A stretch of 46,364 nt of DNA, the filler included, from Jimgerdemannia flammicorona (taxonomy: Eukaryota): the NCBI GenBank assembly GCA_003990765.1. It is 2 parts of 2 records of this genome, joined end to end, with 100 filler letters (N's around TTAATTAATTAA, not from the genome) between each part and the next. Parts side by side here need not be neighbours in the genome. Positions count along the whole stretch, not along the records: positions 1 to 23,134 come from RBNJ01001154.1; 1 more part is not named here. One strand, written 5' to 3'. Numbering within the stretch: position 1 is the stretch's first letter; every line of letters begins with the position of its first letter. Below, one piece after another: positions 1 through 44,228 of the stretch. The position numbers were made by a program, and so were the translations under genes. Below the pieces are notes generated by a model. The model was not told where the DNA came from and did not search any database. It saw only the letters and a program-made list of their open reading frames with translations.

Positions 1-660
1 TGAGAAGAGTAAAGAAGGCTTCAATAAGACCTTCTTCATCTTGACTTGCTGGGTGTAGTGCAAGGAGTTCGGTGAATAGGGTTTCGCCTATTTGCTGGTT
101 TAACTGGAGTATTTCTTTCTTGGAATGAAGTTTGTCCCACTTGTTGCAGGTATGGAGGTCAAATTGTCCTTGTACGTCAGGTTCAATTCTCTCCAGATTG
201 TCAGATGGTTCAGGATAAATTCTAGTTCAGAGGTTGGGCTTTATACCAACTTGTAGGAATTCTTAGAAGGGTTTGTAGCGGGGTGAGGAAGCATCTTGAA
301 GTGGAATTGAATTGTAAACCACTGCTACCAAGTTGTTAGAGGGTTGCTTTTTAGGGTAACCGTTACATAGTTCTGGAAGGGTTTTCTGGAAGTTCTGGAT
401 ATTCTGGAAGACTATTTTCTTATGGTCAAGATCAATTTCATATGGAGTACATCCTCTACGCTTATTGATTTCAAGATCGGGTTGACATCTCAACCAAAGT
501 CCCTTTTTGGACTAGTTCTGGATGTTCAGGATTTTCCATATTTCAGGAAGTTCAAGAAACTAAGACCAGCTTAGTTGAATTGGTGTATCGCTGCAGACAA
601 TACCCAATTAGGAAATTTCGTGATGGGGTTAGGAGTAGGACCTAACAGAGAGCAGATTTA
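1..660 (-). pseudogene. Possible decayed ORF of unknown function downstream of the TATA box
   Basis: The frame of track ORF 263..493 continues both ways through scattered stops (IVCSDTPIQLSWS*FLELPEIWKILNIQN*SKKGLWLRCQP... and ...EEGLIEAFFTLL). No recognisable motif. Confidence 0.35.
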
Positions 661-817
661 CTTAAGAGTAGTTTGTGGGTTATGGAACAGGTTTATTTGC
701 TATTCATGATATTGCTATACTAGAAGTATTTGTGTGAAGGAGTATTGTGGGGAAGTATTCAGGAATGTTCTTATGTGTTCAAGTCTGTTCAAGTCTGGAA
801 TTCTGAGGTCTGGGGGA

Positions 818-956
818 GGGGGTATTTATACTAGTGAGGGGCTATCTGGACTATGCTAGATATGGATATAGTACTAAGTGCTTTGCTGAGTCAGAATGCA
901 GTCACATAGTACAAGTGTGATCTGACATGTCAAGAGATTGTCTGACTGCTGAGTCA
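818..956 (-). promoter_or_regulatory. TATA box with two upstream TGACTCA (Gcn4/AP-1-type) sites
   Basis: TATAAATACCCC on minus at ~818-830; TGAGTCA at 887-893 and 950-956 within an imperfect repeat of ~63-bp period. Confidence 0.45.
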
Positions 957-1019
957 GTTCACAGTCACATCATACAATGCTAATCTAACTATACTATGAC
1001 TGCTAGGCTATTTATGAGT

Positions 1020-2117
1020 TTAAGCACTGTCTGGGTAGTCTTCGATGACATCACCATCGATTGCATCATCTCTGATGAAGTAGTCATCTAGGAATAATGG
1101 TTTGTGGATTACTTCTCCTTATTCACTGAGGTAATAGTATATTGGAACTTTGTCTCCATCCCACAGGATAGCATCATCTGTCTTGTAGGCTGGATAAGAT
1201 GTTGGTGGGTGAAGGATGAGTGTATTGTCTTCGCTTTCATTAGATTCACTGTCTGCGTACCTTCTATAGGTTACAGCACTATGAGTTGCAGGGTTGTAGT
1301 AAGCTGGCAGCTGTGGTTCATGTCACTCATACTCAGGTGGTGGAGTGGTTGGTTCAATCTCGAGGGTTGTCTGGAGGTACAGGTTGTGTTCTCCGGTCTC
1401 CTCATTATAGTTGAAGTAGTCGGGAGTGAACACAGGTTGGTATTTATGCCAGTGGTCATTGTCCCAATAAGTCTCGTATGCAGTTATGAACTGTTGCAAG
1501 TTCATCGGCAAGTTTGGCAGTGTGATCAGGGTTGGCAGAGATCCTTGGCTAGAGGTCATGTCGGCGTCAGAGGGATCATTGTCTTCTGCTTCATCTTTGT
1601 CGAAGTAGATTATATCATAGACATCCTTCATGGCATATCCAACTTGAGGCATTTGCAGGATATGGTCATCAGGGTGTGGGAAGGTTCTGTCTGTGGTCTG
1701 CACATATTCGAGGTACTTGTGGTTGAGTTCTTGTATCATGTCATCGATTTGGCTGTAGGACAGGGTAGCAATCATTTCGCTGGTAGTAACTCGAAGGCAG
1801 GGAATAAAGGTATTGTACTCATAGAAGAGTTCTCGATGTTTGCGGGCGATGAGCTTCTGGTGTTGAGACATCTGGGTAATGTCTGTATCATGGTGGTGTT
1901 CGACTATGTCTTCCAGGAGACAGCCAATCTGGTAGTAGCTTGAGATTTGTCCAATTCAGTGGGCCTCACTAAGCATGTTCAGAGTGTTCTATTGGGCTTC
2001 CACAAAGTAGAGGAGTACTAGGCTATGGATATTCATGAGGGGCAGAGGGGGTGTGGCTCAGTTGACAATGGCATTCCAAATGTCAGCACAGATACGGTTG
2101 TAGATCTTGGTGGTCAT
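1020..2117 (-). pseudogene. Decayed ~365-aa ORF, distant homolog of the Gypsy U3 ORF
   Basis: ATG at 2117 to TAA at 1020 in one frame with no frameshift. Five internal stops (TGA, TAG, TGA, TGA, TAA), each one C>T from a sense codon. Includes track ORF 1323..1871. Confidence 0.75.
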
Positions 2118-2194
2118 GTTTGTGTGTTTGGAAGTTGTGGTTGTTGTTTGTGTATTTGTTTTGGTTCTCTGATTTGATGCATCTCAGTGCTCAG

Positions 2195-2300
2195 TATATA
2201 TGCATTTGGTCCTGATTGGTAAGATTCCGTTTGTGTAAATCTTGTATTCCGTGACTTCGTATTGACTCAGCTTTGTGCGCTGTGACTTCAGTTTGACTCA
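2195..2300 (-). promoter_or_regulatory. Putative promoter of the 2117 ORF
   Basis: TATATA at 2195-2200, ~80 nt upstream of the ATG; CCAAT at ~2215-2219; TGACTCA at 2263-2269 and 2294-2300; A/C-rich leader before the ATG. Confidence 0.45.
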
Positions 2301-2330
2301 GCTTCATGATCAAGCAGATGATTTCCAGAT

Positions 2331-2393
2331 TTGTTCAGAGGTCGCATGTAATTTCGGTGGCTTGTTCAGAGGGTGACATGTAATTTCGGTGGC
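2331..2393. repeat. Tandem repeat, 2 x 31-32 bp
   Basis: ttgttcagag...catgtaatttcggtggc occurs twice. Confidence 0.85.
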
Positions 2394-2544
2394 TTGGAGG
2401 TTGTGCGCTTACAGGGAGTTAGTCTAGAGGTATATAAGACAATAAGGCTGAAGAGAAGAGAAAGGTAAGTGCTAGAAGGACTAGTAGGTCAATGGCTAGT
2501 AGGGCTGATATAGGAACTAGTAAGACTACTGCTAGGCAGAAAAG

Positions 2545-2657: not shown

Positions 2658-5600
2658 AGAGTCTTGTCAGGCTATTGATATAGCTATTAGGATATATTAT
2701 ATTAGATAATAAGTAATGGAAGAGAAAAAGTAGAGTAGGGGATAAGGAGGTAGAAGAAAGAGAGAGGGGTTAAAAGAGAAGTTTGAACTTCAAGCCAATC
2801 AACCAAACTCAATTGAGTAGTTACAATATTAACAGGGTATCCTTTTTTGTGAATCAGAAAATTGGCCAAGGACTGACATTCATCAAATCAATCATGGTAA
2901 GATAAATAGAGTAATAATAGACAAAAAGTCTTATTTATAATATATAGATATAGTGTCTTCCTAAGGTGATTGCTCAACCAGTCAATAAACTATATACTAT
3001 GTAGAAATTTGGCAAAGTAACCTATACAGAATAGTGCAACTCAGATTTCTAAGTCCAAGTAATAGTATGGTCCAGCAGACAAGACTTTTCATTTAATATG
3101 ATAATGCAGAGGGTATATGGTATCAAAAATTGAGGTCAAGTCCATAATTGCAGATGTAAAGATAATCAAGTTGTCAATAAATTAGCAGAACTTTAGCCAA
3201 GTGACAATGACTCAGCTAAGTAAATGATCAGGCACTTGCAAGGCATACAACTTATGAGCAAAGCTAATAAGATTAGTAAGATCCAGAGTACAATTTGTAT
3301 CTATAGCAATATTAGTTACTGAGCAAAAGGAACTAATGGTAGATATGAATGTCATATGAGTCATAACTATACAGACAAGGCCTAAAACAGCTTCAAGTAG
3401 TAAAGAGCCAGAGGGGAATACTATAGTTAATAAAAAGGTAAGGCAGTCTATATATTCATCTAGTGTGATTCTAGTATAGAATATAGCAAAATCTCTAGTA
3501 GTGATGAAATAGCAAGCTGACATGTCTAGGTAGTACAATCAAACTAGTTATAAAAGTTCTAATATATTATGTAGAGGTAAATAATATGAGTAATCTACAT
3601 TATGGTATAGATGGGCCAACTATAGATGGAGAAAGCAAGATAGAAAATATGAAATCTTAGTTGTGGAAGAGTTAAAAGCTCTAATAATAGGGCATTATAC
3701 TATGCAAGCCTATTTGTATATCTTGAATAATATATGAAATACTAGTAACTTATTATTATTAGACTCTATAAAGTAGTTCCAGATTGACATATAACTTATA
3801 TCATTGATATAGAACTTCAATAGACCCATCAGGTCTAACCTCACCAATTTCTTAATATTATTAATTATAGAGATACATATTATTCACATATACAGGATTG
3901 TGAAGAAGAAACCAAAAACTGTCAAGATATAGAGCATATAGAATTATAGTGAACTCTAGATTTTTGTCAGTAAGACAGACTGTAAAGTCATCATGAGTAT
4001 AAATATCTTTAAGAAGGCATTAGAACTTCTTCAGTATAAGTATGCTGGATATATTTATTGTGGGTCAGATAGCTTGATTTAATATAGCACTCATATGAAG
4101 CATAATTTGTATATTTTTCATATAGTGTGGTAGTTGCTATTTTGATGACACCTAGGTAGAGATCTCTGAGATTTCATTAGAATTACTTATAGAGGTCCAG
4201 AAGATAGCAAGGTTGAGCCACTATTGGAATAGTGACAACAAAATCAGATCAATAGTACTGTTTATCAATACCAACCTGAGGAGAACAAACTTAGGACCAA
4301 AGTTCAGCATATATATATGTAAGTTTAAGGGTAAGTCAAGATAGAGATATATTAATAACAAAGCTCTCCTTAGTAAATATCTGAAACTAAAGGATAACAA
4401 ACTGACTTAAGCATGAACTGAAAATAGTAGATATGAAGGCAAAATCCTGAATTAGTGTCAAGACTACTACTCAACATGAAATAGAGATATTAGGGCCAAA
4501 CCATGCTACCAGGAAGTCATAAAAAACTCCTAGGCTAGAGACCTCTAGTTTTTTGAAGCTAGAGGACAAACATTACTGGTATTGTGCCAGATAATATAAT
4601 TTTTGACAGTAGTATACTTGTTGTACTGTAGTACAAATACCCTGATAGTGCTCTTAGATGAGCAGCTCAAAGTCAATAAGTGGCTGGTCCTAGTAGAAGT
4701 GGAGAAAATAGACAAAAAAGGAGAAGTTCTTTATACTCACTTGATCTCTTTTATAGAACCCACTGATGCAGTAGAGGCTAGGGAGCAAGGATCCAATAGG
4801 CCTTCATAGGTACACTGAGATATTCAGAACAGTTGCAGTAGTTCAGTATAGTAGAGACTGAAGTCATACTTACTATCTTAGTCTTTCTCATAGTCTCCAC
4901 AAGTATAATAGTTAAGGGTCAGGTTGGAGATACTCTTTTTTGACTGGACAGAATCAGTAGCAGTAAAAGTAAATATATACTTAGTGCTCAGAGTAACTAT
5001 TTCAGGGTACTTCCCAAGCTTCTCAACTATAACTTTGCAGATAGTAACTGCAATCTCTTGAAGAAATGAGAAAGCAGAGACTATTAGATAAATGGTAGCA
5101 GCAGTGGCCTTAGTGGTAGTGGTTTTTTCCAGTTGGTAAAACTAATATACAATAACATCAAAACTATGAAGGAGGAAGACATTAGCCTTTGCTTGTTCAG
5201 CAGTAGTGATAATGGTCATATTCTTACTAAAACCTTACATGAGATCCTGAAAAATTTCAGGGCCTCTGTGGATACAGATATAGTAGAGTCAATTTTGGTA
5301 TACTGGTCCTTAGCATATGTGGCAGCAGTGATATTCTTAGTCACAGCAGTCTTGATTATAGCCTCAGTATAGCACTTAGCTTCTATAGAAGTAGTAGCAA
5401 GAGCTATAGTATACTATTCCTCTCTAAGGAGAGCAATCACAGCAGAAACCTTTTTAGAAGAGGTAAACTTCCAGTTGGCAACTTGGACCCATAAGAAGTT
5501 AGTGCAGCACTCATATATAGTAGCAACCTTGAGGACATAGAGTACTTTAGTACAAGCAGTACAGAAGATAGCAGGGATCTCAGCAGAGATAGCAGTCAAG

Positions 5601-6228
5601 TAGATAGCCAGATCATTAAAGTTTACCAAATTGATGAAAAAAGCAGAGGAGATAGTAGTATCACTATTTATATTCATATTATCTATCATATTGTTTATTA
5701 TTAAATATATAAATAATAGAAGAAAATGTTATATTGAGATGTAATGCTGATATAGCAGATATGAAGATTAGTAGTAAAAGTCAAACAGAAAGTGATCATA
5801 ATCAAGCTTATGTAAATTTCATAATAGAGCAAAAAGATAGAATAAAGTGTTTTCTAAAGCAAGATGCAATTAATCTATAATCTACTAATAGCATTACAAT
5901 ATATAATAGTCTTTATTCAAATTGATAAATAAGATTTAGTTACAAAAAATATAGATCTAACCCCAGAATTCTGAAATTGGAATAGTGTTTATAAGACCCA
6001 GATCTTGATCCAATCTAAACAGTAGTCTGAATCAGATTTTGTCAATCTATGTATATAATAGGCTATTAAAAATCCAATATAGAAATGATTGATAAAAGGT
6101 ACTAGTAATATGATCAAAATATGTTATACATATATAAATAATACTAAAAATGAAACTAGATTAATAATGGTCATGTGTAGTCATATAATTATCACTTATA
6201 GGTTTAAAAATACAAAAAATTGCTGGAC
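2658..6228 (-). mobile_element. Penelope-like retroelement, inverted arm A
   Basis: Reverse complement of 6378-11734 (ignoring insertions) along its whole length; carries degenerate PLE RT motifs. Confidence 0.85.
2770..5689 (-). pseudogene. Decayed Penelope-like RT ORF (arm A)
   Basis: RDFAIFYTRI (motif A), NIAIDTNCTLDLTNL (GIAMGTNCAPxLANL), FIDNL (F/YIDD), YLDLEI, SNHL (SNHP), KGYP. Confidence 0.8.
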
Positions 6229-6610: not shown

Positions 6611-9600
6611 TATATATATGACCATTATTGATTTAGTTCTGTTTTTAGTATTATTTATATATATATAATATATTTTGATCATGTGACTGATATCTTTTCC
6701 TGATTATTTCTATATCAGGTTTTTAATAGTCTATTATGTACATAGATTGACAAGATCCAATTCAGACTCTGTTTAGATCAGATCAAGGTCTGAATCTTAT
6801 AAATACCATTCTAATTTCAGAATTCTGAGATTAGATCTGTATTTCTCATAACTAAACCTTGTTTATCAATTTGAATAAAGACCATTACATATTGTAGTAC
6901 CATTAGTGGGTTGTAGATCAATTGCATTTTACTTTAGAAAATACTTTATTCTATCTTCTTACTCTGTTATCAAATTTATATAAGCTTGATCACTTTCTAC
7001 TTGACTTTTACTACTGACCTTCATATTTACTATATTAGTATCATATCTCAATATAATATTTTTCTCTATTATCTATATGTTTAATAATATATAATATGAT
7101 AGATAATATGAATGTAAATAACAATACTGCTATCTCCTCTGCTTTTTTTACCAATTTGGTAAACTTCAATAATCTGGTCATCTACTTGGCTACTATCTCT
7201 ACCAATATCTCTACTACCTTTTATACTACTTATACTGAAGTACTCTATACTCTCAAGATTACCACTATGTGTGAGTACCATACTAACTTCTTGTGAGCCC
7301 AAGTTGCCAACTGGAAGTTTACCTCTTCTAAGAAGGTTTCTACTATAATTATCCTCCTTAGAGAGGAATAGTACACTATAGTTCTTACTACTGCTTCTGT
7401 AGAAGCTAAGTATCATACCAAGGTCACAATTGAGGCTACTATAACTAAGAATATCATCACTGCCATATATGCTAAGAATCAGTATACCAAAATTGACTTT
7501 GCTATATCTGTATCCATAGAGGCCCTGAAATTTTTCAGGATCTCTATGGACCTTATATAAGATTTTAATAAGAATGTAGCCATTACTACTACTGCCAAAT
7601 AAGTGAAGGCTAATATTCTTCTTCTCTGTAGTTTTGACATTGTCATGTATCAGTCTTGCCAACTGGAAAAAGCCACTACCACTAAGGCTACTACTGCCAC
7701 TATCTGCCTGACAGCCTCTGCTTTCTTATCTCTTTAAGAAGGGATTACAGCTATTACCCACAAAGTCATAGTTAAGGAGCTTGGAAAGTACTCTGAAATA
7801 GTTACTCTAGATGCTAAGCATATGTTTGCTTCTGCTACTACTGATTCTGCCCAGCTGAAAGAAAGTGTTCCCACTACCCAACCCTCAACTATTGTGCTTG
7901 CAGGGACTATAAGAAAGGCTAAGGTAGTGAGTATAACTTTGGCCTCTACTGTGCTGAATTGCCACAACTATTCTAAATGTCTCAGTGTGCCTATGAAGAT
8001 CTATCAGAGTCCTTGTCTTCTAGTCTCTACTATATCAGTGAGTTCTATAAAAGAGATCAAGTGAGTATAAAAGACTTTTTCTTCTCCATCTGTTTCCTTT
8101 ACTTCTACTAGGATTAGCTATTCATTAACTTCAAGCCACTTATCTAAGAGTACTGCCAGAGTATTTATACTATAGTACAACAAGTATACTACTGCCAAAC
8201 ATCATATTGTCTAGTATAATATTAGTAATATCTGTCCTCTAACTTCAAAAAACTAGAGGTCCCAAGCCTGGGAGTTTTTTATGACTTTCTAGTAGTGTGG
8301 TTTGGCCCTAATGTCTCCATTCTATATAGAGTAGTGGCCTTGATACCAATTTAGGATTTTGCCTTCATATCTACTCTTCCCAATTCACACTTAAGTCAGT
8401 TCTTCATCTTTCAGTTTCAGATGTTTACTGAGAAAAGCTTTATTACCAATATACCTCTATCTTAGCTTACCCTTGAGCTTATATATATACTGAACTTTGG
8501 TCCTAAGTTTGTTCTCCTTGAGTCAGCATCAATAAACAGTACCATCAATCTGATTTCATTATCATCATTCCAACAATAGCTCAACCTTGCTACCTTCTGG
8601 ACCTCTTGACAATATTCTGGAGATCTCTACCTAGATACCATCAAAATAGTGATTACTATACTATATGGAAAATATGCAAATTATACTTCATATGAGTGCT
8701 ACATTAAATCAAGCCATCTGACCCATAAAGAATATATCCACATACTTATACTAAAGAAGTTCTGATGCCTTCTTAAAGATATTTATACTCATAATGACTT
8801 TACAGTCTATCTTACCAATAAAAATCTGGGGTTTACTATAATTCTGCATACTCTATATCTTGACAGTCTTTGGTCACTCCTTCATAATCCTGTATATATG
8901 AATGATGCCTCTATAATTAATAATATTAAGGAATTGATAAGATTATATCTGATGGATCTATTGAAGTTCTGTATTGATAATACTAGTTATATGTCAATCT
9001 GAAACCATCTCATAGAGCCCAACAATAGCAAGTTACTAATATTTCATATATTGCCCAAGATATATAAAGAGACTCATATAGTATGGTGCCCTATCATTGG
9101 AGCTTTTAACTCTCCTATGACTGAGATTTCATATTTTCTATCTTACTTTCTCTATCTATAGTCAGCCCATCTATACTAAAATGTAGGTTACTCATGTTAT
9201 TAATCTCTATATAATATGTTAGAACTTTTACAACTAATTCAATCAGACTATCTAGATATATCAGCTTGCTGTTTCATCACTACTAGAGATTTTACCATAT
9301 TCTATACCTGAATTACACTAGATGAGTATATAGACTATCTCACCTTTTTGTCAACTGTGGTATTTCCCTCTGATACTTTGCTACTTAAAGCTATTTTAGA
9401 CCTTATCTATATAGTCATAATTCATATAATATTTATATCTACTATTAGTTCCTTCTACTTAATAACTAGTACTACTATAGGTATAAATTATACTCTAGAT
9501 CTTACTAATCTTACATATTAGCTTTACTTGTGAGTTTCATATCTTACAAGTACCTGATCATTTACTCAGCCAAGCTATTACTGCCAGGCTAAAGTTCCAC

Positions 9601-9910
9601 TGATTTATTGATAACTTGATCATCTTTATGCCTGTGATTATAGACTTGGTCTCATTTTTTGATACTATTATAATAGTGACCCCAGAATGATGACATCAGC
9701 ACAGGAGATGGCCTTTCCTTGCAAGCCACCAGATTGGAACACAAGAAGATCATATGGTATACAAGATGAGCAATAATGACCAACTGTAAGTCATTGTGAC
9801 CACAGTACAAGCATTCTGAAGAATATAAAAGAAGGATCAAGGAACCGCAGTAGCAGCAACTAACAAGAACCACCAATCCCAAAATAGCTCAAAGACTTAC
9901 CACAAATGAA

Positions 9911-10725
9911 ATGCCTGCTGTCCACCAAACCTCAAGGTCAAGGAACCACCAAGGTATCTCAGTTGAAGAAAGAATATTCCAAGACATCAGAAGAGCCATA
10001 AGAACTCACTCAAGAAGGACTCCTAGTGTCAATCTGGGTACTGCAGACCCCTATCACTTTATCCTCTACTGCTGTGAAATGGAAACAAGGATCACCATTG
10101 CTACTGAATGCCTCCAAATGTGGCAGGAGTATGAAATAGGAAACCTCCTCTGCCAGGAGTTCCCACAGGCCAGTACTCAAGAGCTACAAGATGCCACTCC
10201 TATAGATATATGTGAAACAAGGACAGCTAAGAAGATCTATCAGATCTTTAGGCATGTAACATGGTCGATCTCCAACTTGGAGTATGTTAGAGTCTCAGAT
10301 TTCAGAGACCTATCATCCCACCATATCAATGCACTAGAAGCCAGAGTGACTATAGAAGCCCAGTCCACTATTACCCTCAATAGTGATAAAGTAGAAGACT
10401 TCTGGTCCAGGACAACCCAGACCAATTCCTGCAAGGGTTGATCTCAGTATTCTAAGGCCCAAGCATCCAGGTTTGATCTCTCCAAGACCCCACATTTGTC
10501 CCCTATTTTGTAGAAGAGAATCTCATAGACTGGAGAGCTTCAGATCTTGTTCCCGATTTCCCCACTGCTGAACATAATGATGTCATCAGTGATGACATCA
10601 TCCCACATAACATTGAAGTATACGAAATGTGTGACCTATATGACAAATTCATGGATCTTATCTCCTTCAGTAATGATGATGATGATGATAATAAAGTCCC
10701 TATGGTCCTGAACTTTCTGCTCTAA
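9911..10725 (+). pseudogene. U3-encoded ORF, copy 1
   Basis: Open for 176 aa (MPAVHQTSRS...); a ~10-bp deletion near 10405 shifts the frame; ends MVLNFLL*. Confidence 0.75.
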
Positions 10726-10732
10726 GTTCTTT

Positions 10733-10935
10733 GTTATACTGGATAATGCCAGCACCAGTATTCTCATGTAATACTGGATAATGCCAGCACTGGTATTCTG
10801 AGGTGATGTGAAATTGTTCCAACACTGGTATTCTTATGTAATACTGGATAATACCAGCACTAGTATTCTGAGGTGATACAAAATTGTTCCAGCACTGACA
10901 TTCTGATGTGACACTGAATTATACCAGCATCCTGA
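10733..10935. repeat. U3 tandem array, ~35-bp unit x ~6
   Basis: Variants of gtaatactggataatgccagcactggtattct between the ORF stop and the TATA box (~11027). Confidence 0.8.
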
Positions 10936-13717: not shown

Positions 13718-14034
13718 TCTTTCTTCTGAATAAGGATCTTCTTAAATATCCTTATTTATTGGTCCAGTCCTGAAATATTTGCTGATCCTATAACCTCTGA
13801 TAGGAGGTCAAAAAGTGGTGTTTATGGGCTAGCATCTTCTCTATGTATTTTGGCATAATAGTGAAGGGTCACTCTCTTCATATAAAGCAAGGGCCTGATT
13901 CTGATTTTGACCAATTAGTTGATGGTTTGAACTTCTCTGGCTTTGAAAGTCTCACAGATAAGTATGTAGTTATTGGTACTATATCTCTTAGAGAATGGTC
14001 CAGACAGATTGTCTGCTAGTCATGGGACATGCTG

Positions 14035-17000
14035 TTATGATTCATAGACTAGAACCTCACAGGTAGTCATCATGTTTTGCTTCTCTTATATAAGTTTATA
14101 GTACTTCTTGAGTCTGTTCCTATGTATAATAGTAGGCAGTATAGTCTCTGAGAGTTTTTTAAGCCAGAAGGTAGTTCTTTTGATATCTTGTACATAGAAG
14201 AGTCCTTTCTATTTGAGCTCCAGTTTTTGTGACCATGAGGCTTCTACTATATTTTGATACAGTAGAACCTTTTATCCAATTTGGATGGGTTCTAGAGTCT
14301 TGTGATTCTTTTCTGCATTCTTTCTCATCAACACTTGTAACTTGATGATGTAATCTTCAGCCTTCTTCCTAATTTGGTATAGTCTCTGGATTTCTGAGTC
14401 AACCCATCTCCAAGTTAGATCTAGATTTGTAGCTGAGGTTCCATCAGAATCTTCTTCTCTGAAGAGTAGTTCTCTTGGGGTAAAGTGTACTCTGTGACCA
14501 TATGTCTCATAAGACAGAGAGAGCAGTTGGGAGGTAGTTATCCCAATTCTTATATGTGTCTGAGATCTTTGCTAAGATATTCTTAAGAGTCTTGTTAGTT
14601 CTCTCTGTCTGTCCATTTTCTTGAGGGTGGTATATGGTGGTCTTGATGTGCTGAATTATATATTTCTGATATATTATCTCATAGAATCCATTGATAAATT
14701 CTGTGCCACAGTTTGTGGTGATTTGCTTTAGTGTCTTATATGTAGCAGCAGATGATTTCTCGATATAGGAAGTCAGTTATAAAGAGGACATTGGCTTCCT
14801 GTAATACTCCTGCTTCTATCTATTTGATAAAGAGGTCTATAATAACTATAATGTAGCAGTTTCCTGATAGTATTACTGATAGTAGTCTAATAATATCTAT
14901 TGTGATATGGTAGAAGGGGATAGGCTCAATTCTTGATGACCTGGATACCTGGTCTTACTAATCTTATTTTTGTTTTTAGCACTTGTCACACTCTTTGACA
15001 AATTGATACAGGTCTTCTTCCATCTTGGGCCACCATATAGTTCTTCTTGTCTTGTTATATATGTTGGTTCCTCCTAGGTATTCTTGTTTGTATACTTTCT
15101 TCATTACTTAATACTTCTTATGTTCAGATATTATAAGCTTTTCTCCTTTTCTGAGTGTGGTATTGTCTAGTTCAAACTGTTTCCAAGTCTGATTGATGAT
15201 GGTGATTATCTAGGGTTCAAGATAGTTGGGTATCTTCTACTACCCAAGGTAGCTGATTAATCTATAGTATAACTCCTTATTCAGGTTGAATAGTCTTGAT
15301 GGGGGTGTTTCAGAGTATCCTTGAGAGTATATCAGTATTGGCATTGGTTTTTTCTGGGTGATACTTGATAGTACAGTCATACTCTTACAGCCTGTAGATC
15401 CATCTGGTATATATTTCTTTGGGATTCAGAGTGTGGAATAGTCAGACAAGAGCAGAATGGTCTGTTTGAATAGTGAAGTGTTTCTCAGCTAGGTAGTAGT
15501 GGAACTTGTCTACTGCCCAAACTACTGCTAAGCATTTGAGCTTGCATAACTTATAGTTCTGTTCTACTCCATGAGTATCTCAGCTTATATAGGAGATGAC
15601 ATATTTATGTCTATCTTTCTTCTAAGCTAGGGCTGCTCCAAGTTCTATAGCACTTGTATCTGTCTACAGGATAAACTCTAGGTTCCAATCTGGTCTTTTG
15701 AGGATAGATGCTTAGATCAACCTAGTCTTGAGTTCATTGAAGGTTTCTTTATATTGCTTAGTCCATTCAAATTTGGTCTCCTTCTTCAGTAGCTCATAGA
15801 TAGGTGCTGCAATGTTAGAGTATCCTTTAATGAATCTTCTATAGTAGGAGGCCAGTTCAAGGAAGGCATGAACTTCTGTAGTTGTTCCGGGTCTTAGATA
15901 GGATACAATAGCCTCAATCTTCATAGAGTCTGTGTAGATTCCAGTCTGGTTAATGAGGTGTCCTAGGTAGGTGATTTTCTGAGCTGCAAACTTGCACTTC
16001 TTGGGCTTAATATAGAGGCTATACTCTTTGAGCTTCTTGAGGACTAGCTGTATATAGTTGACATATTTCTGTACAGTATTGCTGAAGATGATCATATCAT
16101 CAACATAGACAAAGAGCCATTTTCTGATCACATTGCTAAAGACTCTATTCATCATTAACTGAAAACTTGCTGGGGCATTGCACATTCCAAATGGCATTTG
16201 CAGGTAGATATAGGTGGCATCAGGTGTGATGAAGGCTGATTTCTCACCAACATCTTGAGTGAGACCAATCTGATGGAAGCCTGAGAACAGATCCAAGGTG
16301 GTATAGTATTTGGCTTTACTTTTAAGAGTGGTAAGGATTTCTTGAATATTTGGCAAGAGCTGTCTATCCTTCTTGGTGATTGCATTGAGCTTCCTTTAGT
16401 CAATGCAGAGTCTTGGAGCAAACTCTCCAGACTTGCTTTCTTTCTTTAGGGCAAAGACAATGAGTGAAGCCCAGAGACTGATAGCTTGCTTGATGATTCC
16501 AGCTTCTTCCATTTCCTTGAGTTCTGCTTGCAGTTATTCTCTATAGACAAGTGGTATAGATCTGGCTTTCTAGTAGATAGGCTTGATATCACTGGTGTCA
16601 ACTTCATAGTAGTACTTGAGTTCTTGATTATAGATATCTCTGAAGTCTGTAGCAAGTACTTCTTTATTCTGATGCAGGATCTTGAGAAGTTATTCTTCCA
16701 GGAGAAAGTTTTCTCCAATGGTATATGTGTGCTTGTTCTGGTCCTTATCTTTCTTGTACTCAAGTTTGGTAATCTTGATGGCAGTATAGGCTCCTCTTCT
16801 AGTAGATCCAAAGCCTTGTTCTCCTCTCTTGATCTTGATGAGTTCAATGGCTTCAGTGAACTTGGGCTTCTTGATTTTATAGATCAGCATCTGGCCAATC
16901 CTGTCATACTTCTTGACTTCAAATGGGGTAGTGGGGTTGTGATTCCTGACTATGAGGAAGATCTTGCCAGTGTAATCAGGGTCAATTACTCCTCCTTTAA

Positions 17001-19303
17001 CTGAGATTTCACTTTTGGCCAGATTACTCCTGTCTTGATAATTCTGATATAGTTCTCTAACAACTTGACTCCAATTCCAGTGCCAAGTAGAGTAGTGGTC
17101 TGTGGTTTGAGGGTAGCATCTTGAATGTTGGCAAGGTCTATTCTTATGGCTCCTTCAGTCTTGTATTCTGAGATCTTGGTTTTGAGGTGAAACTTCTTGA
17201 CCTTGAGGGTGATGTCTGGTTTTTGTTTCTCCTTATCATTACTGTCAGCTTGAAGCTCTGGGGGCTGGTCATCTTCTTTGGCTTTCCTTTTTGCTTCAAC
17301 AGCTTCTTGCTCATGCTTCTGTTGGTGGATTTTCCTGACTTCACTGATATAGGACCAGCAGTCATTCAGGTGTTCAGAGCAGTACATCCTAGTACTATGG
17401 AAGCATCTTTCTTGAGGGGTATAGCCATCAATGATCTTATTGTACCACTGCTCATCTGTGAGCTTGGGTGTCTTATTCTTATTCTTGTTCACTGAGTGTA
17501 TGAAGACTTCTGTGTCCTCTTCATCTCCTTCCTCTATATCTGATAGAACTCCTTTGTAGACATTGATAGAGAGTTATATCTTTCTTCCTCTATAGTTGAT
17601 CTGCATCTTCTGGACATTGAGATCAATAATGGCCTTGGCCTTATGAAGCTATTGATTGCCAATGAGGATGTCATAGTTGGTGGCACTTGTAACAATCATA
17701 TCTACTGGAATGGTAGCTCCTCCTATCTTGATAGAGACTTCTTGGATTTTGCTAAGAGGGGTAGCTCATGTACCATCTGCTGTGACATAGACCATCTTGG
17801 TGGACTCTTCAATGTCTCAACCTAGGCAGTCAATTGTCCTTTTACTCATGAAACATCCTCCAGCATCAGTATCAATGATGGTATCAAAGATACAATCTTC
17901 AATCTGATATGGGGTATAGGCTGATGTTTTGTACTGATCTTCAGATTCTTTGTCTAAGTCTTCTTGATTATCTTCTTGTGCATTGTGAGCTTCTATGATC
18001 TTGTATTCTTGGTTCTTGACAGTGGTTGCAAGTTCTACTCTCAACTGCTGTCTGAAGGCAGGGACTTTGGCTAGCTATCCAAAAGTAGCATTGACCTTCT
18101 GTTTCTTAAGATCTTTGTAAATATCATACTGGTAGATCTTGGTCTTATATAGCTTCTGTTTCTTCTTGCTTTCACTTTCTCCTAAGACTAGAGTAGTACC
18201 TTCAATGATTTGGTGAGCAGCTTCATCTAACTCTATATCTTGATCAATCTTCTTAGGTTGGATCTTACTTTGAATAGTGATAGCTGGGGTCTTCTTTGGT
18301 CTTCCAACTGGCTTACTGTTGCTCTTCTTGTCATAGAGCTTAGACTGGGTTCTGGTACCTTCAGTAGCAGGGTAGAATTCAAGCTCTTCATAGTATTCTT
18401 TATCATCAGTATCACCAATCTCCTCAATAACTACTGTATTGGTTTGTTCTCTAGTTCTGGTAATATTACTTGGTTGGGCTTTGTGTCTTGTTTTGGTCAT
18501 ACAACTCTTTGCATAGTGGCCTTCTTCTCTACATCTGAAACATGTAATATTGCATTCTTCTGTAGTAGCTGCAAATCTCTATACTGGTCTCCTGTTAGTG
18601 CTTTGGACTTCTCTAACAACATCACTAAGATATGTAGTCATCTTGGCAAACTGTTTGGTAAGTTCCTCCACTGGGTCAGCTTTGGCTATCTTGGGGGTAG
18701 GTGGGGATGGTTGTCTGTTTACAACTATAGTGGGTATGATACTGATTGGCTTTATAGCTCTATCTTGATGCTAGTTATTTTCTCTATTGAGTATTCAGCA
18801 GAGTGTCTGGCAGTCTAATATCTCTGTGCAAAGACCACTTTCTGATCAAGAGTCAATACAGCTGGGATAGATCAGATTGCTAGAGCAATTTCTGAGTGAA
18901 CTCCTTTAAGAAAGGTTGAATCTACTATTTGTTCCTTGAGGTGGTTATCATAGCCAGCCAAGACAATCTGGTGGCAGATTCAGATATAGAATAAGTTGGA
19001 ATCTTTACTGAGTCTCTGGCAGATAGTATTGAGTTGATCCTTGAGAGCTTGCTTGATCTCTTCAGTATAGTATGTAGTTCTGAGAAAGGTCTTCATGTTG
19101 GAAAGTCTGGCTATACCAGTATCAGCAATAGTGGCTGTATTGAACTTATCTCTGACAGGTCCTCTGAGACTGACTAGTAGAAGAGCCAATTGTGCATCCA
19201 TATTGAGGGCTCATATAGTGGCAAATTATTCAAAGTCTTCAATGAAGGTCAGAATTGACTCTTCAGTAGTATATCTATAGAATGTGAGGAGACATATTTC
19301 CAT
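14035..19303 (-). pseudogene. E1 gag-pol with many stops
   Basis: CCHC knuckle CFRCREEGHYAKSC ~18505-18545; protease IIDTDAG ~17870; RT LDLFSGFHQI/MPFG/YVDD in 15712-16356; RNase H TDHSAL ~15455; integrase core and GNRLKKY-like tail 14035-15150. Confidence 0.93.
16795..17205 (-). pseudogene. dUTPase domain within E1 pol
   Basis: EYKTEGAIRIDL, GTGIGV, GVIDPDYTGKI, DRIGQML, KRGEQGFGST (trimeric dUTPase motifs). Confidence 0.9.
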
Positions 19304-23234: not shown

Positions 23235-23933
23235 AAAAAAAAAAAAAAAAACACCATTACCATTATCATCTCTCTCCGAATACCCAAACCCAGGCACTTA
23301 AAAATAAACCACAAGCAATTGTACCTTCCTCAACTCCCACGTTACTTTCTTCGATCCTCGTAGCTTCGACCCATTTCTTTCACAACGCCTTCCGCCCTGT
23401 CCTATTGTCCGCAACTCGCACGATAGCGTGGTACACCACAGCCAAACAGACACTGGCCACAACTATCACACACCCAATTATACGACACAAGCGCCACATT
23501 TTATTCAACCCGGGCCAGTGGAACAAGATCGCGGGCAGACACTAAATCAAGGGGGATGAAATGAAACGCGAATGTAAGAGGAGATCAAGGAGGCGGATGG
23601 AAAGGCTACCTTCGGGCTACGAAATCTCTGGGGGGAGGGGGATGGAAGGGTATACGCTGTGCAAAAGATTTTTGGGATTAAGAAGGGCCATAAGTATTGC
23701 TAGGATAATGTGGTAATCGTGTGAGGGAGTGTTTGTGCGTGCATGAGTGATATATACATGAACAAGCAGGATAATCAGGCCGAAACGAATAATGTTATAC
23801 GGAAAACGGAAAAAGGAGGCGAGCGAGAAAGGAATATGTAACAAATTCCTTCAATACAACTGCAATTTTAACAAGAAGCAATCCCCTCCCCCCCGATTCA
23901 CAGCCCGGTCGACATTGTTCTAACATCCTGTAC

Positions 23934-26168
23934 CTACACATCGTCGTCATCCTCCACACTCTTCCCCGCCTTTCCAGACCCCACGACGACCTCAGGTTCT
24001 CTGCATTTGATAAACTCCACCACCATGTCCCCACAGCCACAAGACTCAAGAACCCCAACATAAAATGTACTCTGACAATCCATGGGAATTCTTCCTCGTC
24101 CAACGCCCAACTATACAGAGTCCCGCACAATGCCGGTCCGATGGCCCTCATTCCGCTAGCCATGCACTGCGCGAATCCGTTGATGGTTCCAAGAGTGCTG
24201 AGAGAAGATGCTGAATCGGAAACAAGGATCATGGAGCTGGTAAACACGATCACGCTGCACATGGTCTTGCCGGCCAGGCATACCATGAGTCCGGCCCAGA
24301 CGTAGGGGACATGGAGATGGCGCAGAAATCCCTGACTAAAGTAGAGTGGGATGTAGACGGCGAGCGCGAAGCGGAAGACGGCGAGGGTTCCCCAGCGACG
24401 CTGCAAAGGAGCAGCTGCATGACAAGAGTCATTATGCCGGCGGCGGAGAGGGAGATGCCGATGTCATTGGAGGTGAAGCCGAGACCGCCCTCGGAGGGTG
24501 GAGTTGCGGCCCAGATGGAGTAAAGCCCGTCGTACATGACGGTTTGGAAGCAGACGAGGATGTAAGCAGTAATGATAATGAGGACTGGGCGAGTCAGCAC
24601 TGAGCGGAAGGTCAGTTTGCTGGGTTTGGATTTCGGTTTGGATCGAAAAGCGGTGACAGTGATGGTGGTGGTGTTGAGTGTCGGGGTTGGGGAGGGGGGA
24701 AGGGTAGAGGACATGAATATGGATGGAGTTGAGAGGACAGGAAAGGTGTTGTATTCGGGGACGCCGGCGCCGGAGGGCGTGATTCCAGACATCATGGCCG
24801 TCGCTCTGCGACCTCGCCGCCTTCATCACTTTCATCCTCATTGTTCGAATCCCTGCTCTTCGTACCCAACGTCTCCTCCAGAAAAAAGATGCCAAACACC
24901 ACTCCAACAGTGCACAAACATGTGCCGGTGAAACATGGCAAAAAGTATGGGTTTGCCTCAAGCAAGGTCGTGATCCATCCTCTGCCGCCAAACACTGCGG
25001 GGTACTTTTCAACAGGGTGAGTGAGGAAGCCACCAAGGATGGGGCCGAAGATGGACCCTAGGCCGTACATGAGCGGAAGAAGGGAGAAGGCACGGGCGTG
25101 TTGGTTGGACGAATGATCAACTGTCAGCTCAGCGACCATGGACTTGAGAGCACCGATGTTGCCGTTCAGCAGGCCGCAAAGCGAGCGCAAGGCGAGCGCC
25201 CAGGTATATGAGTGTGATAAGCCAAAAAGGAGGATTGAAATGATCGTGCCAGTCATCCCGATGAGTATGATGGGCAACGACCTGCATATGGGTAGGTGGA
25301 TGGGTAGATGGATGGGTAGATGGATGGGTAGATGGATGGGTAGAGATGGGGATGGGTGAGTGAAAGGTATGAGGAGCTGTTTCGTTGAACAGATCATTGA
25401 GAGTCAAGGGAGAGAAACCTTACCGATTCGGTCTGATAGATATCCCATGGAAGACCTAGTTAATTGATGAGTCAAGAGGGAATTTTGGTAAGGGACGTCA
25501 GTTCCCGCTAAATCTAATTTGATAACTAAAATGATGTCTCAATTGAAGAAAATGAACCTAGCGATCTCTTCTCAAGGATTACAAATCACATTGTGACCCC
25601 CTTCTGATCCCTTGTTTATCTTTTCCATTCCACCTATACTATGATTTTGGTCGCATGATGCCACGAGATAAGTCCACCCACAACATCATTTTGGTCGTGT
25701 GATATCACGAGATAAGCATTGGTTTTGTGAATTGGGCGATGGCGAAACTCGACAAGATGTAACCGACGTAGAATCCAATCTTGTTGGGGTCATCAGTGAC
25801 GTTGTAGTCTCTCACCATCTGTGTGAAGATACATATGAGAAGGGGGAGGGGGTTATTAAACAATTAGATAGTACAAAAGCATGCCAATAAAATAAACTAA
25901 ATAAAATAAAATAAAAAAAACGTGCAAGCCGCAAGAAATACGGACAACGAGCGTTACTTACAAAGTAGACAAAGGGGAATAGGATGGTGAAGTAGACAGG
26001 TTCCTGGAATGAGGGGGTGGGTGGTTTCAGTGAACAGGCCATAGGGACGAAGGAGAGCTTGCGAAACGAAGTCACTCATGGTGGTTTATACATACAGCAA
26101 AGCGACAGACACAGAATGAACAACTGTCTCGTGGGAAAAGGTAGATGTTTTTTTCCGGCAGTTCCCAT
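23934..26168 (-). pseudogene. MFS transporter (DHA1/ZIFL-YCR023C-like), intron-containing and frameshifted
   Basis: Exons ~26168-26096, 26003-25962, 25818-~25727, ~25455-25424, ~25281-23934 with GT/AG. Motifs CRFA|EP, IGFYVG, W(G)YLSDRIGR, GLLNGNIG, GGLGF, LGTING. About six frameshifts. Confidence 0.85.
25288..25345. repeat. Intronic 12-bp minisatellite x ~5
   Basis: (atgggtagatgg)n next to the intron acceptor. Confidence 0.9.
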
Positions 26169-26493: not shown

Positions 26494-28035
26494 ATGACGC
26501 ACCCCTGCAACTCTTGCCAGGTCTGCCATACCGCAGGTGATGACTTCCCTGGACGACATTCTATCAGCTCAAATACGTACCCCTTATCTCATAACATGGA
26601 GGCTATCATGGCCGCCATCACAGCATATACTGAAGGGGACAATGACATTTTAACAACTCTTCTCCAACTCCATGAACATTGCAATATACTGTGACATTCA
26701 CCTGAACTCACTGCAAGCGCATCCACCAGACTACCATAGGTGGATTTCAACTGGGACACCTACATCGCCAAGCAAGACCAACTAATTGTCACTCTACACC
26801 GCCACCTCAAAAAAGCCCAAGCTCTACCTCTTCTGACCACTATCATCAACCTGGCATCTGACCCTGATTATCTCACTGACCCTGAATCTCTGGGCACTGC
26901 ACCAGTGGCGTCTGTGTCGCATCTGGCACCAATTTCAGTTTCGGGCATAGGTGTACCCACAATGCGAGTTTCAGGCATTCCTGTCTCAGATATTTTCATA
27001 CCTCAGTCACTGGAGCTTCCCACTTGGCAATCTTTATCTATAATGGTCCAGCCAGTCTTTTGGCCATCATTACCACCTGCTGCCTTTCCATTTCCAGTAT
27101 TGCCAGACCCTTCTGGTTTCCAGCACCCACCTACTGACATTCCACTTACTACCTACTCTGGCATCCCACCTCTATTTCTGGCATCCAGCTACTTTCCTTA
27201 TGTGGCAAGCTCTGTGAGACCTTCTACTACTATGACTATGCTACCCACCTCTATGGCTGCCCCGATACCCATAGGTGCAGTCCCAGGTGCATTCTTTTTT
27301 CCTTCTGCATATGATAGCCCCAACCTCACCAAGTACTTGAGTGTAAACCCCACTATGGTCTCTGCCATTCTCCACAATACTTTTCGACTATGAGATCTGG
27401 GAAAACTAGTTATTTGCTCCCCTTCGACCCTTGCTCCTCCTGATCCTCATTTTATTGAGGAGGTCAACTCTACCACCCTCACACATGTCTTACAGCCACG
27501 AGAAGTTGCCATGGTCAAGGATTTCCCCCATCTTCTTGTGCTACTTGGCCCTTTGTTACTATATTTCAGCATACTCTATGATGCATTTCCAGGCCTTACT
27601 GACCCAACAGCATTCTTTCACTATATCTCCAACCTTATCTACCTAAACAGCAATTATCAATGGGAGGCAATACTCGATTATCACATTGAGTTCCATACAT
27701 GACAGATACCTACCCCTCTCTCTCATATATCATATTTGGTATGGGCTACTCAGAATGGTGAACTTATGTCTTTGCACCTACTCTCTTGATCTCTGTGCTG
27801 TCTCACTGGGTCTGCCTCATCCATTGCTTGTTCACTGAGAATCTCTCCTCCATCACAACTACCTCGGTGCAACCAGTCTTATCAGTCATCAAATGTATGC
27901 TGTATATTTAACTATATCAATTGGAATGGTACTGTTGACCTCTCCTTAACTGGCTGTACCTACCAAAACTGTCCTTACCAACATCTATGCTCCCATTGCA
28001 CAAAACTATATGGCATATTTGAATGTACATTATAG
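26494..28035 (+). pseudogene. Ngaro ORF1 (gag-like)
   Basis: One frame through stops; Pro-rich middle, YQWEAILDYHIEFH, C-terminal Cys/His finger (CTYQNCPYQHLCSHC). Confidence 0.75.
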
Positions 28036-28149
28036 GATCCTGTGAGTAAATCAGTAGACCTCATTGTAGTTCCCCCTTCTACTCCATCAACAAGACCCCC
28101 TCTTTCTACTCCTTTAACATTACTTCCCCCTTGACCATCTAATACCTCC

Positions 28150-29720
28150 TTCTTCTTCCCTCTCACCACCCCCCTGATTTTGGCCAAAAACATCCTGGAC
28201 ATCTTCTCTCTTCCAAAAACCTCTCTTTGAGCTGATATATAGATATTGGTATTCCAGGACTTCCCTGACTACTACTTATTATCCACAATCTTACTTGCAT
28301 TATGTCAAGGTATTTATATTGGCTTCATGGGCATATACTATGCTCAAACATGTCGCAACTTACCTTCTGCACATGCCTTTCCTCAGATAATTTTAGATAA
28401 CATTACAACTGAAATTGCTGCAGGCCACATCACAGGCCCATTCTTCCACCCTCCTTTCCAAAACTTTCAGGCTTCCCTACTGGGCATGGTGCAAAGAAAG
28501 GTTCTGTCAAATAGCACTGCATTCACCACTTATTGTGGCCCTATGGCATGTCAGTCAATGATGGCATTTTACCTGACAATTTTACTCTTAAGTACACAGC
28601 CTTTGACCAGGTACTCAACATCATACAATGACTTGGTAGAGGGACCTTACTCTTCAAAATAGATCTGGTCAATGTTTTTTGATATATCTTGGTATATCCA
28701 GAAGACTGGGAACATCTTGGCTTTCATTGACACATCCTTTTCTACTTCAATCAGTTTCTCTCATTCAGCCTATGCTCATCACTATTTCTCTATAATGTGT
28801 TTGGGGAGATGCTGGAATGGCTGTTCAAGCACCATGGTCTGGAAGACATCGTCTGATATATTGATGATACACTGGGTGTCTGCCACTTCTCAGGCATCTG
28901 CTCTGCTGCAGCTCCTCCTATCAATCTGCCATACCATCAGTTTTTCAGTATGGGATGAGAAGATTGAAGGCCCCTTGATCTGTATCCCCTTTTTGGATAT
29001 TGATATTGATACCAATGACATGGAAGCATATCTTCCAGAGGGAAAAATCCAAGCCATCCTCACCATGATCTCCAGCTTCTGCAGTCATTCTAACCAAGCA
29101 ACTGTTATAAAACAGGAAATACTCTCACTCATTGATTCCCTCTCCTTTGCATGCTGCATTATTCTGTAAGGTCAACTCTTTCTCTACCACTTCATTGATA
29201 TTTTAACCTCTATCACTTACCCAGACCACTATATTAACTTATCAGCAGACTTTTTTGCTGATGGAATGGGGTTGCAATAATCACACCTTGGGAAGAAGTC
29301 ACCAATAACTGGTTTTAGACAGATGCCAGTAGCACTTTGAGCTTCACTGTCTTTTTTGATAGAACTTGGTTTGCTATCTCTTGGCCAGCAGAACTCCATT
29401 CTGAGGATATTCAATTTAAGGAATTATATGCTGTTGTGGTCCCACCACTACTTGGGGTCCATACTGGTGCTTTTGATGTATTTGCATATAGACAACCAAG
29501 CAGCAATATCATGTATTAACTCGAGTACCTCTCATAACTCCAAACTCCTCAAGCTACTATACTAACTGTTGTTTTTAGGTGCATTATATTCATTTTAGTT
29601 ACATGCATCATACATCTCCTCTCACCTCAATGTCATTGCTGATGTATTGTCCTGTCTTGATTTCTCCCACTTCCACACTCTTGCCCCTTATACAGATCAG
29701 ACCCCTACTATACCAGGCTC
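28150..29720 (+). pseudogene. Ngaro RT and RNase H
   Basis: GHITGPF..PPF, IHHLLWPYGMSVNDGI, FKIDL, YIDD ~28857, TDAS ~29318, IQFKELYAV, IDNQAA, NVIADVLS. Confidence 0.88.
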
Positions 29721-29729
29721 TCTCTCTAC

Positions 29730-43921: not shown

Positions 43922-44144
43922 CTCTTTAGTTATATCTTTTTTCTTATTTAGTAATTATTCCAACTTGAAGTGCTCTTAAAACTCAGCATGATTTTGGTAG
44001 GCTCCAAAGTATAAAATATATAATATAATAGGTGGGTCTATATGATACTTTGAATACTGGTGAAGGATTCCTCTATAGCTGGTAACTTAGTAGAATACTA
44101 TTATCTCTCTATAGCTTACTGAGTAGTACTTGTGATCTTGAGAG

Positions 44145-44162
44145 CTATAGCAGTACTTTATT

Positions 44163-44228
<66 letters not shown>

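Follow-up and report, generated by a model that had tools for sequence, protein, structure and literature searches.

A chromovirus with a reading frame in the U3 region of its LTR

The DNA analysed here, referred to as the window, is a 46,364-nucleotide stretch from the Jimgerdemannia flammicorona assembly GCA_003990765.1. Its left end is occupied by a long terminal repeat (LTR) retrotransposon, family A, the 5' LTR of which spans positions 334..2413 on the minus strand (2,080 bp, TGT...ACA); copies of this LTR share both ends, whereas their flanks are unrelated. Three nucleotides past the LTR end lies a primer-binding site (PBS; 319..330, minus strand) for initiator tRNA-Met, complementary at 11 of 12 bases in the window copy and at 12 of 12 in the full-length copy L013, as judged against the 3' end (including CCA) of the genome tRNA gene with a CAT anticodon and an A1:U72 pair (L178, L180). 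Beyond the PBS, the internal region and gag begin (1..318, minus strand); this part runs to the contig end and is 91-92% identical to the matching part of full-length L013 and L017. The succession of LTR end, PBS and gag start identifies the window copy as a 5' LTR and provides, together with the gag-pol genes of other copies, the leftward retroelement context expected by an earlier sequence-only reading of this DNA. Target-site duplications of 5 bp were found on four distinct family A solo LTRs (L005, L010, L026 and L071), the window copy itself stopping at the contig end, and a purine tract (PPT) precedes family A 3' LTRs.

Full-length family A elements (L013, L017, L023 and L028) encode dUTPase, protease, reverse transcriptase (RT), RNase H, integrase and chromodomain. 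Pfam searches with L013 recovered zf-CCHC, dUTPase, aspartyl protease, RVT_1 and Chromo (E-value of 3.7e-18), and the CCHC knuckle was also read in the L013 translation; RNase H and integrase were recognised by motifs in translation. Family A is a chromodomain-containing Ty3/Gypsy element, that is, a chromovirus.

The LTR carries, in minus-strand orientation, a 365-codon open reading frame (ORF) at 1020..2117 (ATG at 2117, stop codon at 1022-1020). Five in-frame stops, at codons 20, 43, 54, 265 and 333, make the window copy a pseudogene; a stop-free natural copy of 365 aa is present elsewhere in the genome. Given that the ORF begins 297 bases into the window LTR (289 bases in the case of L092) and that 190 bases separate its end from the main TATA box, it lies in U3, where it takes up over half of the 2.08-kb LTR. 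Two parts can be distinguished in the product. The N-terminal part is an all-helical domain of ~140 aa (1698..2117, minus strand), delineated by leave-one-out profiles, a library search and a structural model, within which a sub-domain with a helix-turn-helix (HTH)-like motif (residues 56-140; 1698..1952, minus strand) is indicated by weak structural matches and conserved columns, and a putative recognition helix (residues 85-98; 1865-1824, minus strand) by alignment columns. The remainder is a family-specific C-terminal tail of 225 aa (1023..1697, minus strand), which by its composition is acidic and rich in proline and aromatic residues (50 D/E, 7 K/R, 24 P and 30 F/W/Y) and, on this ground, is a candidate activation domain.

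The 1,098-base ORF stretch is a high-copy repeat: the 40 copies scored out of 4,212 candidates match near full length at 91-100% identity. Six copies in 370 kb sampled blind at contig starts would translate into ~3,750 per genome (231-Mb assembly), a rough figure given that contig starts are a non-random sample. LTR pairs of family A are 87.7-93.9% identical over comparable 1.0-1.3 kb. Two copies, L006 and L007, are internally deleted, with ~1 kb between the LTR-derived parts.

Other features of the window

Family B, the comparison element, is represented in the window by a U3 ORF with an open 5' part at 9911..10438 (plus strand) and by further copies near 13461 and 20673 (minus strand) and near 34059, 40390 and 45488 (plus strand); a stop-free natural B copy encodes 279 aa. 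The window also holds a broken ORF of family D in two parts ~700 bases apart (43169-43333 and 44029-44166, minus strand), in the form that follows integrase; close to where it starts there is a long run of T. At ~13800-14100 (minus strand), family B seems to carry a second decayed ORF of ~100-150 codons, located between the integrase end and the 3' LTR. Elsewhere, a 3-kb repeat of decayed coding-like sequence is present as two inverted copies that are 80.5% identical (3125-6174 and 6618-9660), and decayed ORF fragments at 26700-30400 (plus strand), read by eye, resemble a DIRS/tyrosine-recombinase-type retroelement. Only one host gene was clearly recognised in the window, a GC-rich, intron-containing major-facilitator transporter gene at 23795-25403 (minus strand; MFS_1, E-value of 1.3e-9).

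Homology between the A and B reading frames

The sequence-only reading had proposed that the A ORF is a distant homologue of the U3 ORF of family B, citing six collinear protein blocks and no obvious similarity at the DNA level. The blocks do follow one another in the given order in a single minus-strand frame (residues 8, 21, 33, 61, 90 and 105, starting at window positions 2096, 2057, 2021, 1937, 1850 and 1805), and the A LTR is indeed dissimilar to the B and C LTRs in nucleotide sequence (best blastn E-value of 0.4). A shuffle test on the pairwise A-B alignment, by contrast, does not bear the proposal out, the score being at chance level. The Smith-Waterman score of the stop-free full-length copies (40) is reached by 254 of 1000 shuffles, that of the N-termini by 36 of 1000 and that of the window A copy against window B copies by 850 of 1000; BLASTP yields an E-value of 0.078 and no significant match in the tail.

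The failure of the pairwise test means that the A-B link needs intermediate families, and at the profile level the homology is above chance relative to shuffled controls, in the same register as originally proposed. Residues 1-150 of A were scored with a profile from which A had been left out (B, C, D and F), yielding 25.9 bits for the stop-free copy and 21.3 bits for the window copy; neither score was reached by any of 1000 shuffles or 1000 local shuffles (P of about 1e-9 to 1e-10). With each family left out in turn, the remaining families recover A at 25.9, B at 54.8, C at 60.6, D at 51.7 and F at 15.4 bits (each score reached by 0 of 1000 full and 0 of 1000 local shuffles). Family C is a clear homologue of B. 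On the window copy, a B-only profile gives 3.6 bits (12 of 1000 shuffles) and a B+C profile 6.8 bits (2 of 1000); it is the inclusion of family D that makes the link to A firm. A six-frame search of 0.91 Mb with the B+C profile found family D, with A copies just behind (E-value of 0.006), and the addition of D to the profile brought A to an E-value of 4.5e-7 over the whole domain and exposed family F. Comparison of A with B+C+D by hhalign aligns A26-132 with B38-147 at an E-value of 7.7e-4, with a probability of only 25.

The homology is confined to the first ~140-150 residues: A151-365 scores -2.1 bits against the N-terminal-domain profile, a value reached by 617 of 1000 shuffles. The acidic sequence noted behind the blocks in both ORFs is there, B having 31 D/E versus 7 K/R in a tail of 129 residues, but the two tails have only this composition in common and not their sequence.

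The pairwise score at shuffle level and the low hhalign probability are what one would expect if the two ORFs were unrelated and the blocks a product of chance, or if A were no real gene. Such a reading is hardly credible in view of the leave-A-out profiles and the blind 0.91-Mb search, the bridging protein P0039 described below, and the density of stops in the A ORF, which is 4-6 per 1000 codons in frame versus 40 and 82 in the other two frames. That the A-B homology and its element context are real we consider nearly certain.

Distribution of the domain across Gypsy families

The domain was found in five Gypsy families (A, B, C, D and F) from three RT clades. In the RT tree, A groups with two other chromoviruses (L131 and L156), B with D (support of 100/99) and C with F (92/87); the RTs of A and B are 37% identical. 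Profile search of the examined stretches of L131 and L156 revealed no ORF with the domain. They represent a second chromovirus family, with ~100 additional codons behind the chromodomain (L131:8560-8900 and L156:250-560). Elements of all five families encode a dUTPase (L013, window 16690-17154, L123 and L149), which is located ahead of the protease in A and behind it in B; no chromodomain match was obtained for family B.

The position of the ORF differs among families. Families A, B and C carry it in U3, where it begins 241 bases into the LTR of B and 207 bases into that of C, whereas in D and F it lies right behind integrase and ahead of the purine tract, starting within a few bases of the integrase end. 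The pol DNA of B and D is common up to the integrase end and divergent beyond it. At locus L139, an internally deleted element, an F-type RT passes straight into the 3' end of the accessory ORF, followed by a PPT. On the plus strand of L130 (~1070-1300), the first half of the domain is matched weakly, at 14.4 bits, in what is possibly a sixth family.

Pairing of the ORFs departs from that of the RTs, with a B-C score of 146 versus 75 for B-D and 31 for C-F, and a second motif behind the domain is common to B and C. This pattern suggests that the U3 cassette was exchanged between the B and C lineages or, alternatively, that an old paralogue was kept. Because the ORF tree is poorly resolved (a quick-method tree in which 10 of 43 branches are starred and the group holding B and C is supported at only 86), it does not fix the number and direction of ORF moves.

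A locus from another data set, L181, bears on the order of these states. Its B-type ORF, in which 109 of 256 aligned residues are identical (43%), is free of stops and retains the TATAAAAG box of B and the leader ahead of the ATG, with a score reached by 0 of 2000 shuffles; a PPT-like tract and TGT come immediately after the ORF. L181, the only external member for which a locus was obtained, looks like an internal, promoter-bearing state and a possible source of the U3 state, the internal position being deduced from motifs in one 1.5-kb contig that lacks pol. In the B and C LTRs, tandem repeats in variable number (35-bp units in B) are located behind the ORF stop and ahead of the main TATA box (window 10732-10929, L041:2430-2470 and L109:2518-2735); the B units start with TGT, like LTRs, and might be relics of an older LTR boundary.

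Relatives in sequence databases

Searching 1.84 billion representative sequences with the five-family profile returned 57 matches at an E-value of 0.001 or lower, three of which (P0027, P0050 and P0063) were discarded, being either unrelated or driven by repeats. About a dozen of the 57 lie near one of the five families. The others are divergent proteins without a name, for the most part encoded on short metagenomic contigs, as looked up for 20 of them. Outside the five families, the domain is carried by about 50 divergent unnamed proteins. P0039, which was held out as a test, bridges A to the other members. A profile of 37 external proteins, constructed without those close to B, C, D, F and A (P0003, P0008, P0010-P0016, P0023, P0029 and P0032) and without fragments (P0035, P0044, P0055 and P0062), assigns 51.6 bits to A, 46.1 to the window copy and 65.3 to B, with 0 of 300 shuffles reaching each score, although the test is not fully independent, as the external proteins had been picked with a profile that included A and B. 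Among 46 aligned sequences, the conserved columns (A numbering) are Y62 (aromatic in all 46), G65 (41), A91 (40), K93 (R/K in 41) and F98 (43).

None of the sequence searches linked the domain to a named family. Pfam gave no family for A and B at an E-value of 10 and none for 50 proteins at 0.05; across 53 members, no Pfam family was matched by more than one member and no PHROGs family by more than two. DUF3102 (PF11300) is not among the 25 of 47 Pfam families listed for the 53 members, and its Pfam model produced 0 candidates in the genome. Sequence search of solved structures (PDB) reached a best E-value of 0.2, an Atlas search with B1-165 returned unnamed clusters only, and word-based homologue searches recovered only close relatives (1 of 618 and 8 of 1162 candidates). 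No member was found among 8000 scored proteins of 600-2000 residues, which is weak evidence as regards fusions, and for the genomic context of one distant external member, 0 of 95 pattern matches were confirmed.

Purifying selection followed by decay

In a set of 23 A copies assembled independently of protein searches, variants found in at least four copies comprise 50 non-synonymous and 71 synonymous changes, versus 93 and 57 for private variants (Fisher p of 0.0009); across all 48 A copies, the respective ratios are 71:116 and 89:54. The non-synonymous deficit is seen in both the domain and the tail. The pol control consisted of only five copies and had no shared class. The A ORF was under purifying selection while the element spread and decayed after insertion. 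None of the 23 unbiased copies is stop-free, implying that the protein may be rare at present. Taken with the leave-one-out profiles and the RT tree, the selection test upholds the original view of an old, selected protein family common to separate LTR-element lineages.

The decay is uneven: in family A copies, C-to-T changes affect 22.9% of sites at CpG versus 2.7-7.9% in other contexts, a bias that inflates the apparent age of the elements. Heavy CpG change of this kind is expected from host DNA methylation, and plant VANC proteins offer a work-alike for an element protein that counteracts silencing. The ORF product could be conceived of as an anti-silencing or chromatin factor, as opposed to a classical activator, which would attach to the DNA of the element and there prevent or reverse methylation or heterochromatin imposed by the host. 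The thousands of copies reached by the families fit this idea, as does the restriction of the conserved core to the DNA-binding-like domain, a long tail being absent from 21 of 40 external members. On the other hand, Pfam searches detected no catalytic or chromatin-reader domain, the copies were methylated and decayed all the same, and acidic-aromatic tails such as those of A, B, C and F would better suit an activator. On balance, we find an anti-silencing role rather unlikely. Acidic tails are present in these four families and in 17 of the 40 external members; family D, like the 21 external members, has almost no tail, and activation therefore cannot be a universal function of the domain.

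Predicted fold and candidate DNA-binding motif

AlphaFold models of A1-140 (pLDDT of 93.7) and of the matching family D sub-domain (pLDDT of 95.8) are all-helical. Comparison of the D sub-domain with 48,161 chains placed SopB, VirB, SopB and P1 ParB in the top four positions (SopB, Z-score of 5.0, rmsd of 3.5 and 73 aligned residues; VirB, 4.7, 3.5 and 72; second SopB, Z-score of 4.5; ParB, 4.5, 4.3 and 75), with KorB at a Z-score of 3.8, and most of the further rows are HTH proteins. For A, SopB appears at ranks 2-3 (Z-score of 4.0, rmsd of 4.2, 82 aligned residues) and VirB at rank 4, these rows (Z-scores of 3.7-4.0) coming behind an unrelated photosystem chain with a Z-score of 4.0. The ParB-family scores of 4.0-5.0 (rmsd of 3.5-4.5 over 72-82 aligned residues) all fall below the level at which the structural tool is trusted, which is 8, or ~13 when the fold is helical, and unrelated rows score equally high. 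Foldseek produced no match at an E-value of 0.001 against PDB or BFVD, and the ParB family is absent from its best 50 PDB rows.

In HTH proteins, the recognition helix follows a turn with a hydrophobic residue, starts with an N-cap and bears basic residues. The corresponding turn and next helix, aligned across 53 members, display a hydrophobic residue in 49 and an S/T/N/D N-cap in 37, with R/K in 20, 20, 22, 46 and 32 members at the respective columns. The first helix of the motif is only one turn long in A. Models and columns together weakly suggest that residues 56-140 of A form a ParB-like HTH, a putative DNA-binding domain. Proteins containing DUF3102 recur in the BFVD results (ranks 3 and 32, and 1 and 4; E-values of 0.47-2.8, non-significant), and the Atlas feature search lists HTH_3, DUF3102 and plasmid-partition clusters, also with non-significant scores; a remote kinship with DUF3102 is possible.

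The cluster ranked first by Atlas is labelled as a translation repressor (PF01818; score of 0.93, 146 of 256 shared features). Basic helices are also able to bind RNA, and one may envisage a post-transcriptional or particle-associated role, in RNA binding, in control of translation or copy number, or as a helper of nuclear import or integration. The start of the D and F ORFs so close to the integrase end would fit a pol-linked product. Nevertheless, 146 shared features fall short of the 170 expected of true family members, the top structural rows are DNA-binding domains, and the U3 position with a candidate upstream promoter parts the ORF from pol. We regard this option as unlikely.

With the structural likeness to ParB being weak, the HTH resemblance could also be incidental, and the protein could be directed at the host or at other elements, for instance by excluding competing elements or by manipulating the host cell, in a role like that of mouse mammary tumour virus (MMTV) sag, which, as described in the consulted part of the source, is the best-known U3 ORF and acts on the host (PMC12548423). 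Neither a signal nor a membrane segment is evident by eye in the stop-free A and B sequences, Pfam and solved-structure searches gave no sequence link to sag, and the conserved basic face falls on the putative recognition helix, all of which argues that a host-directed factor is quite improbable.

Promoters of the LTR and of the ORF

The sequence-only reading assigned the ORF its own promoter and pointed to TATAAATACCCC behind the acidic part. The motif is present at the 3' end of U3 (819..830, minus strand), where sequence and conservation mark it as the main promoter of the LTR. It lies 190 nt downstream of the stop codon of the ORF, is directed away from this gene and cannot drive it. In B, TATAAATA[CT]CCC follows four of the six copies in the window. 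TATAAATA is retained in 32 of 33 LTR copies, as is an AATAAA located after the main TATA (697-692, minus strand); of the TGAGTCA/TGACTCA sites ahead of TATAAATACCCC (887-893 and 950-956), one is kept in 32 of 33 copies and the other in only 6 of 33.

What was cited as the promoter of the ORF is thus an ordinary LTR promoter, but an own promoter is plausible through other motifs, upstream of the ATG. The candidate region, defined by sequence motifs and their conservation (2195..2300, minus strand), includes two TGAGTCA motifs (2300-2294 and 2269-2263, kept in 31 of 31 and 32 of 33 copies), presumably AP-1/Gcn4 sites, a CCAAT (2219-2215, 32 of 33) and a TATA-like box (2202-2195) 78 nt before the ATG, which is kept in 40 of 47 distinct copies and is separated from the ATG by a CA-rich leader. 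Family B has TATAAAAG at a similar distance before its ATG and C is without a clear equivalent; in D, TATAAAAG occurs 86 nt before the start, within integrase codons, and may be due to chance. Contigs from two sequencing runs, only guessed to be RNA, cover parts of the LTR and ORF and cannot give level, strand or starts.

A proposed regulatory role

The reading that we favour, which is plausible although short of probable, is that the ORF encodes a DNA-binding transcription regulator of the element, organised like the Tas protein of foamy viruses. The ancestral place of the ORF would have been internal, between pol and the PPT, with a TATA promoter of its own, and a shift of the LTR boundary would have carried promoter and ORF into U3, probably at least twice (in A and in B/C). 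Every LTR, solo LTRs included, would then hold a self-contained cassette. The protein would be nuclear and would bind DNA through its putative ParB/KorB-like HTH, the acidic tail may recruit the transcription machinery, and the outcome would be control of the promoters of the element itself, most likely their activation, in the way known from foamy-virus Tas.

A broader proposition, which we put forward tentatively and consider somewhat doubtful, is that the domain defines an unnamed, widespread family of retrotransposon transcription factors with a ParB/DUF3102-like HTH derived from bacteria or phages and, in part of the members, an acidic activation tail, and that this family was swapped among distant Ty3/Gypsy clades and moved into U3, along with its promoter, more than once. 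If this HTH-family reading is true, thousands of solo LTRs were once self-contained regulator cassettes with a Tas-like feedback loop, an arrangement otherwise known only from complex retroviruses. More generally, should the protein be a trans-acting regulator, retrotransposons would have independently evolved the complex-retrovirus strategy of encoding a transcription factor. Even if the guess on function is wrong, there remains an apparently undescribed accessory domain family for transposable element annotation to recognise.

For most additional ORFs of LTR retrotransposons no function is known, and LTRs are regarded as non-coding. In the present case, a single domain with a confident model and a candidate DNA-binding surface connects a chromovirus with two Gypsy clades outside the chromoviruses and with ~50 divergent proteins from other data sets. 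It is a real, selected and apparently undescribed accessory domain of Ty3/Gypsy elements, in this case situated in the U3 of a chromovirus LTR. New in this work are the controlled A-B link, the spread over five families and three clades, the internal B-type locus and the hypothesis of an HTH-like fold.

Comparison with known systems

In its CCHC gag, dUTPase, protease, RT, RNase H, integrase and chromodomain, as well as in its TG...CA LTRs, 5-bp target-site duplication, PPT and initiator-tRNA PBS, family A resembles fungal chromoviruses, from which it differs in that more than half of its LTR is filled by a selected ORF. Some fungal Gypsy elements carry a dUTPase and an additional ORF of unknown function, the place of which relative to the LTR is not given in the consulted part of the source (PMC2864245). 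Term look-up in the accessible parts of PMC3248453 and PMC3601003 found no LTR-encoded ORF, and neither the domain family nor a fungal-retrotransposon U3 ORF is reported in the literature listings and the abstract openings covered, a scope outside of which are subscription journals, Repbase and Dfam.

The ORFs of D, F and L181 share their place (between pol and the 3' LTR), orientation and family-wide conservation with the aORF-3S class of additional ORFs (PMC7264820). The review of such ORFs lists examples ahead of gag and in the part from pol to the 3' LTR, with none inside an LTR, suggests regulatory and nuclear roles, and mentions an own promoter for the antisense gene23 of Grande (PMC7264820). 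The present domain differs from that class in not being env-like, but soluble, helical and without a Pfam family, and in its location inside U3 in A, B and C.

SopB, VirB, KorB and ParB itself provide the top, albeit weak, structural rows for residues 56-140 of A and for the D sub-domain; unlike the ParB family, the proteins described here have no CTPase or C-terminal dimer domain, possess two additional N-terminal helices and obtain no Pfam match. A parallel in organisation is offered by foamy-virus Bel1/Tas, which is likewise a 3' accessory gene with its own promoter (a candidate one in our case), a DNA-binding part (putative in our case) and an acidic C-terminal part, and the acidic activation domain of which, according to the consulted portion of the source, has little homology between species (PMC517496). 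The internal promoter of Tas is outside U3, as far as that portion describes it, and the likeness to A would be one of working principle rather than of demonstrated homology.

With MMTV sag, finally, the A ORF shares the property of a sense ORF that fills most of U3 and is present in both LTRs and in solo LTRs (PMC12548423, consulted in part). Sag is a retroviral superantigen that acts on host immunity, whereas here a retrotransposon gene is involved, the domain of which is also found outside LTRs; no sequence or fold link of A or B to sag or env was found, the A model being all-helical and soluble. The series from internal to U3 positions may nonetheless serve as a model for how LTRs grow by gene capture, a question that MMTV sag also poses.
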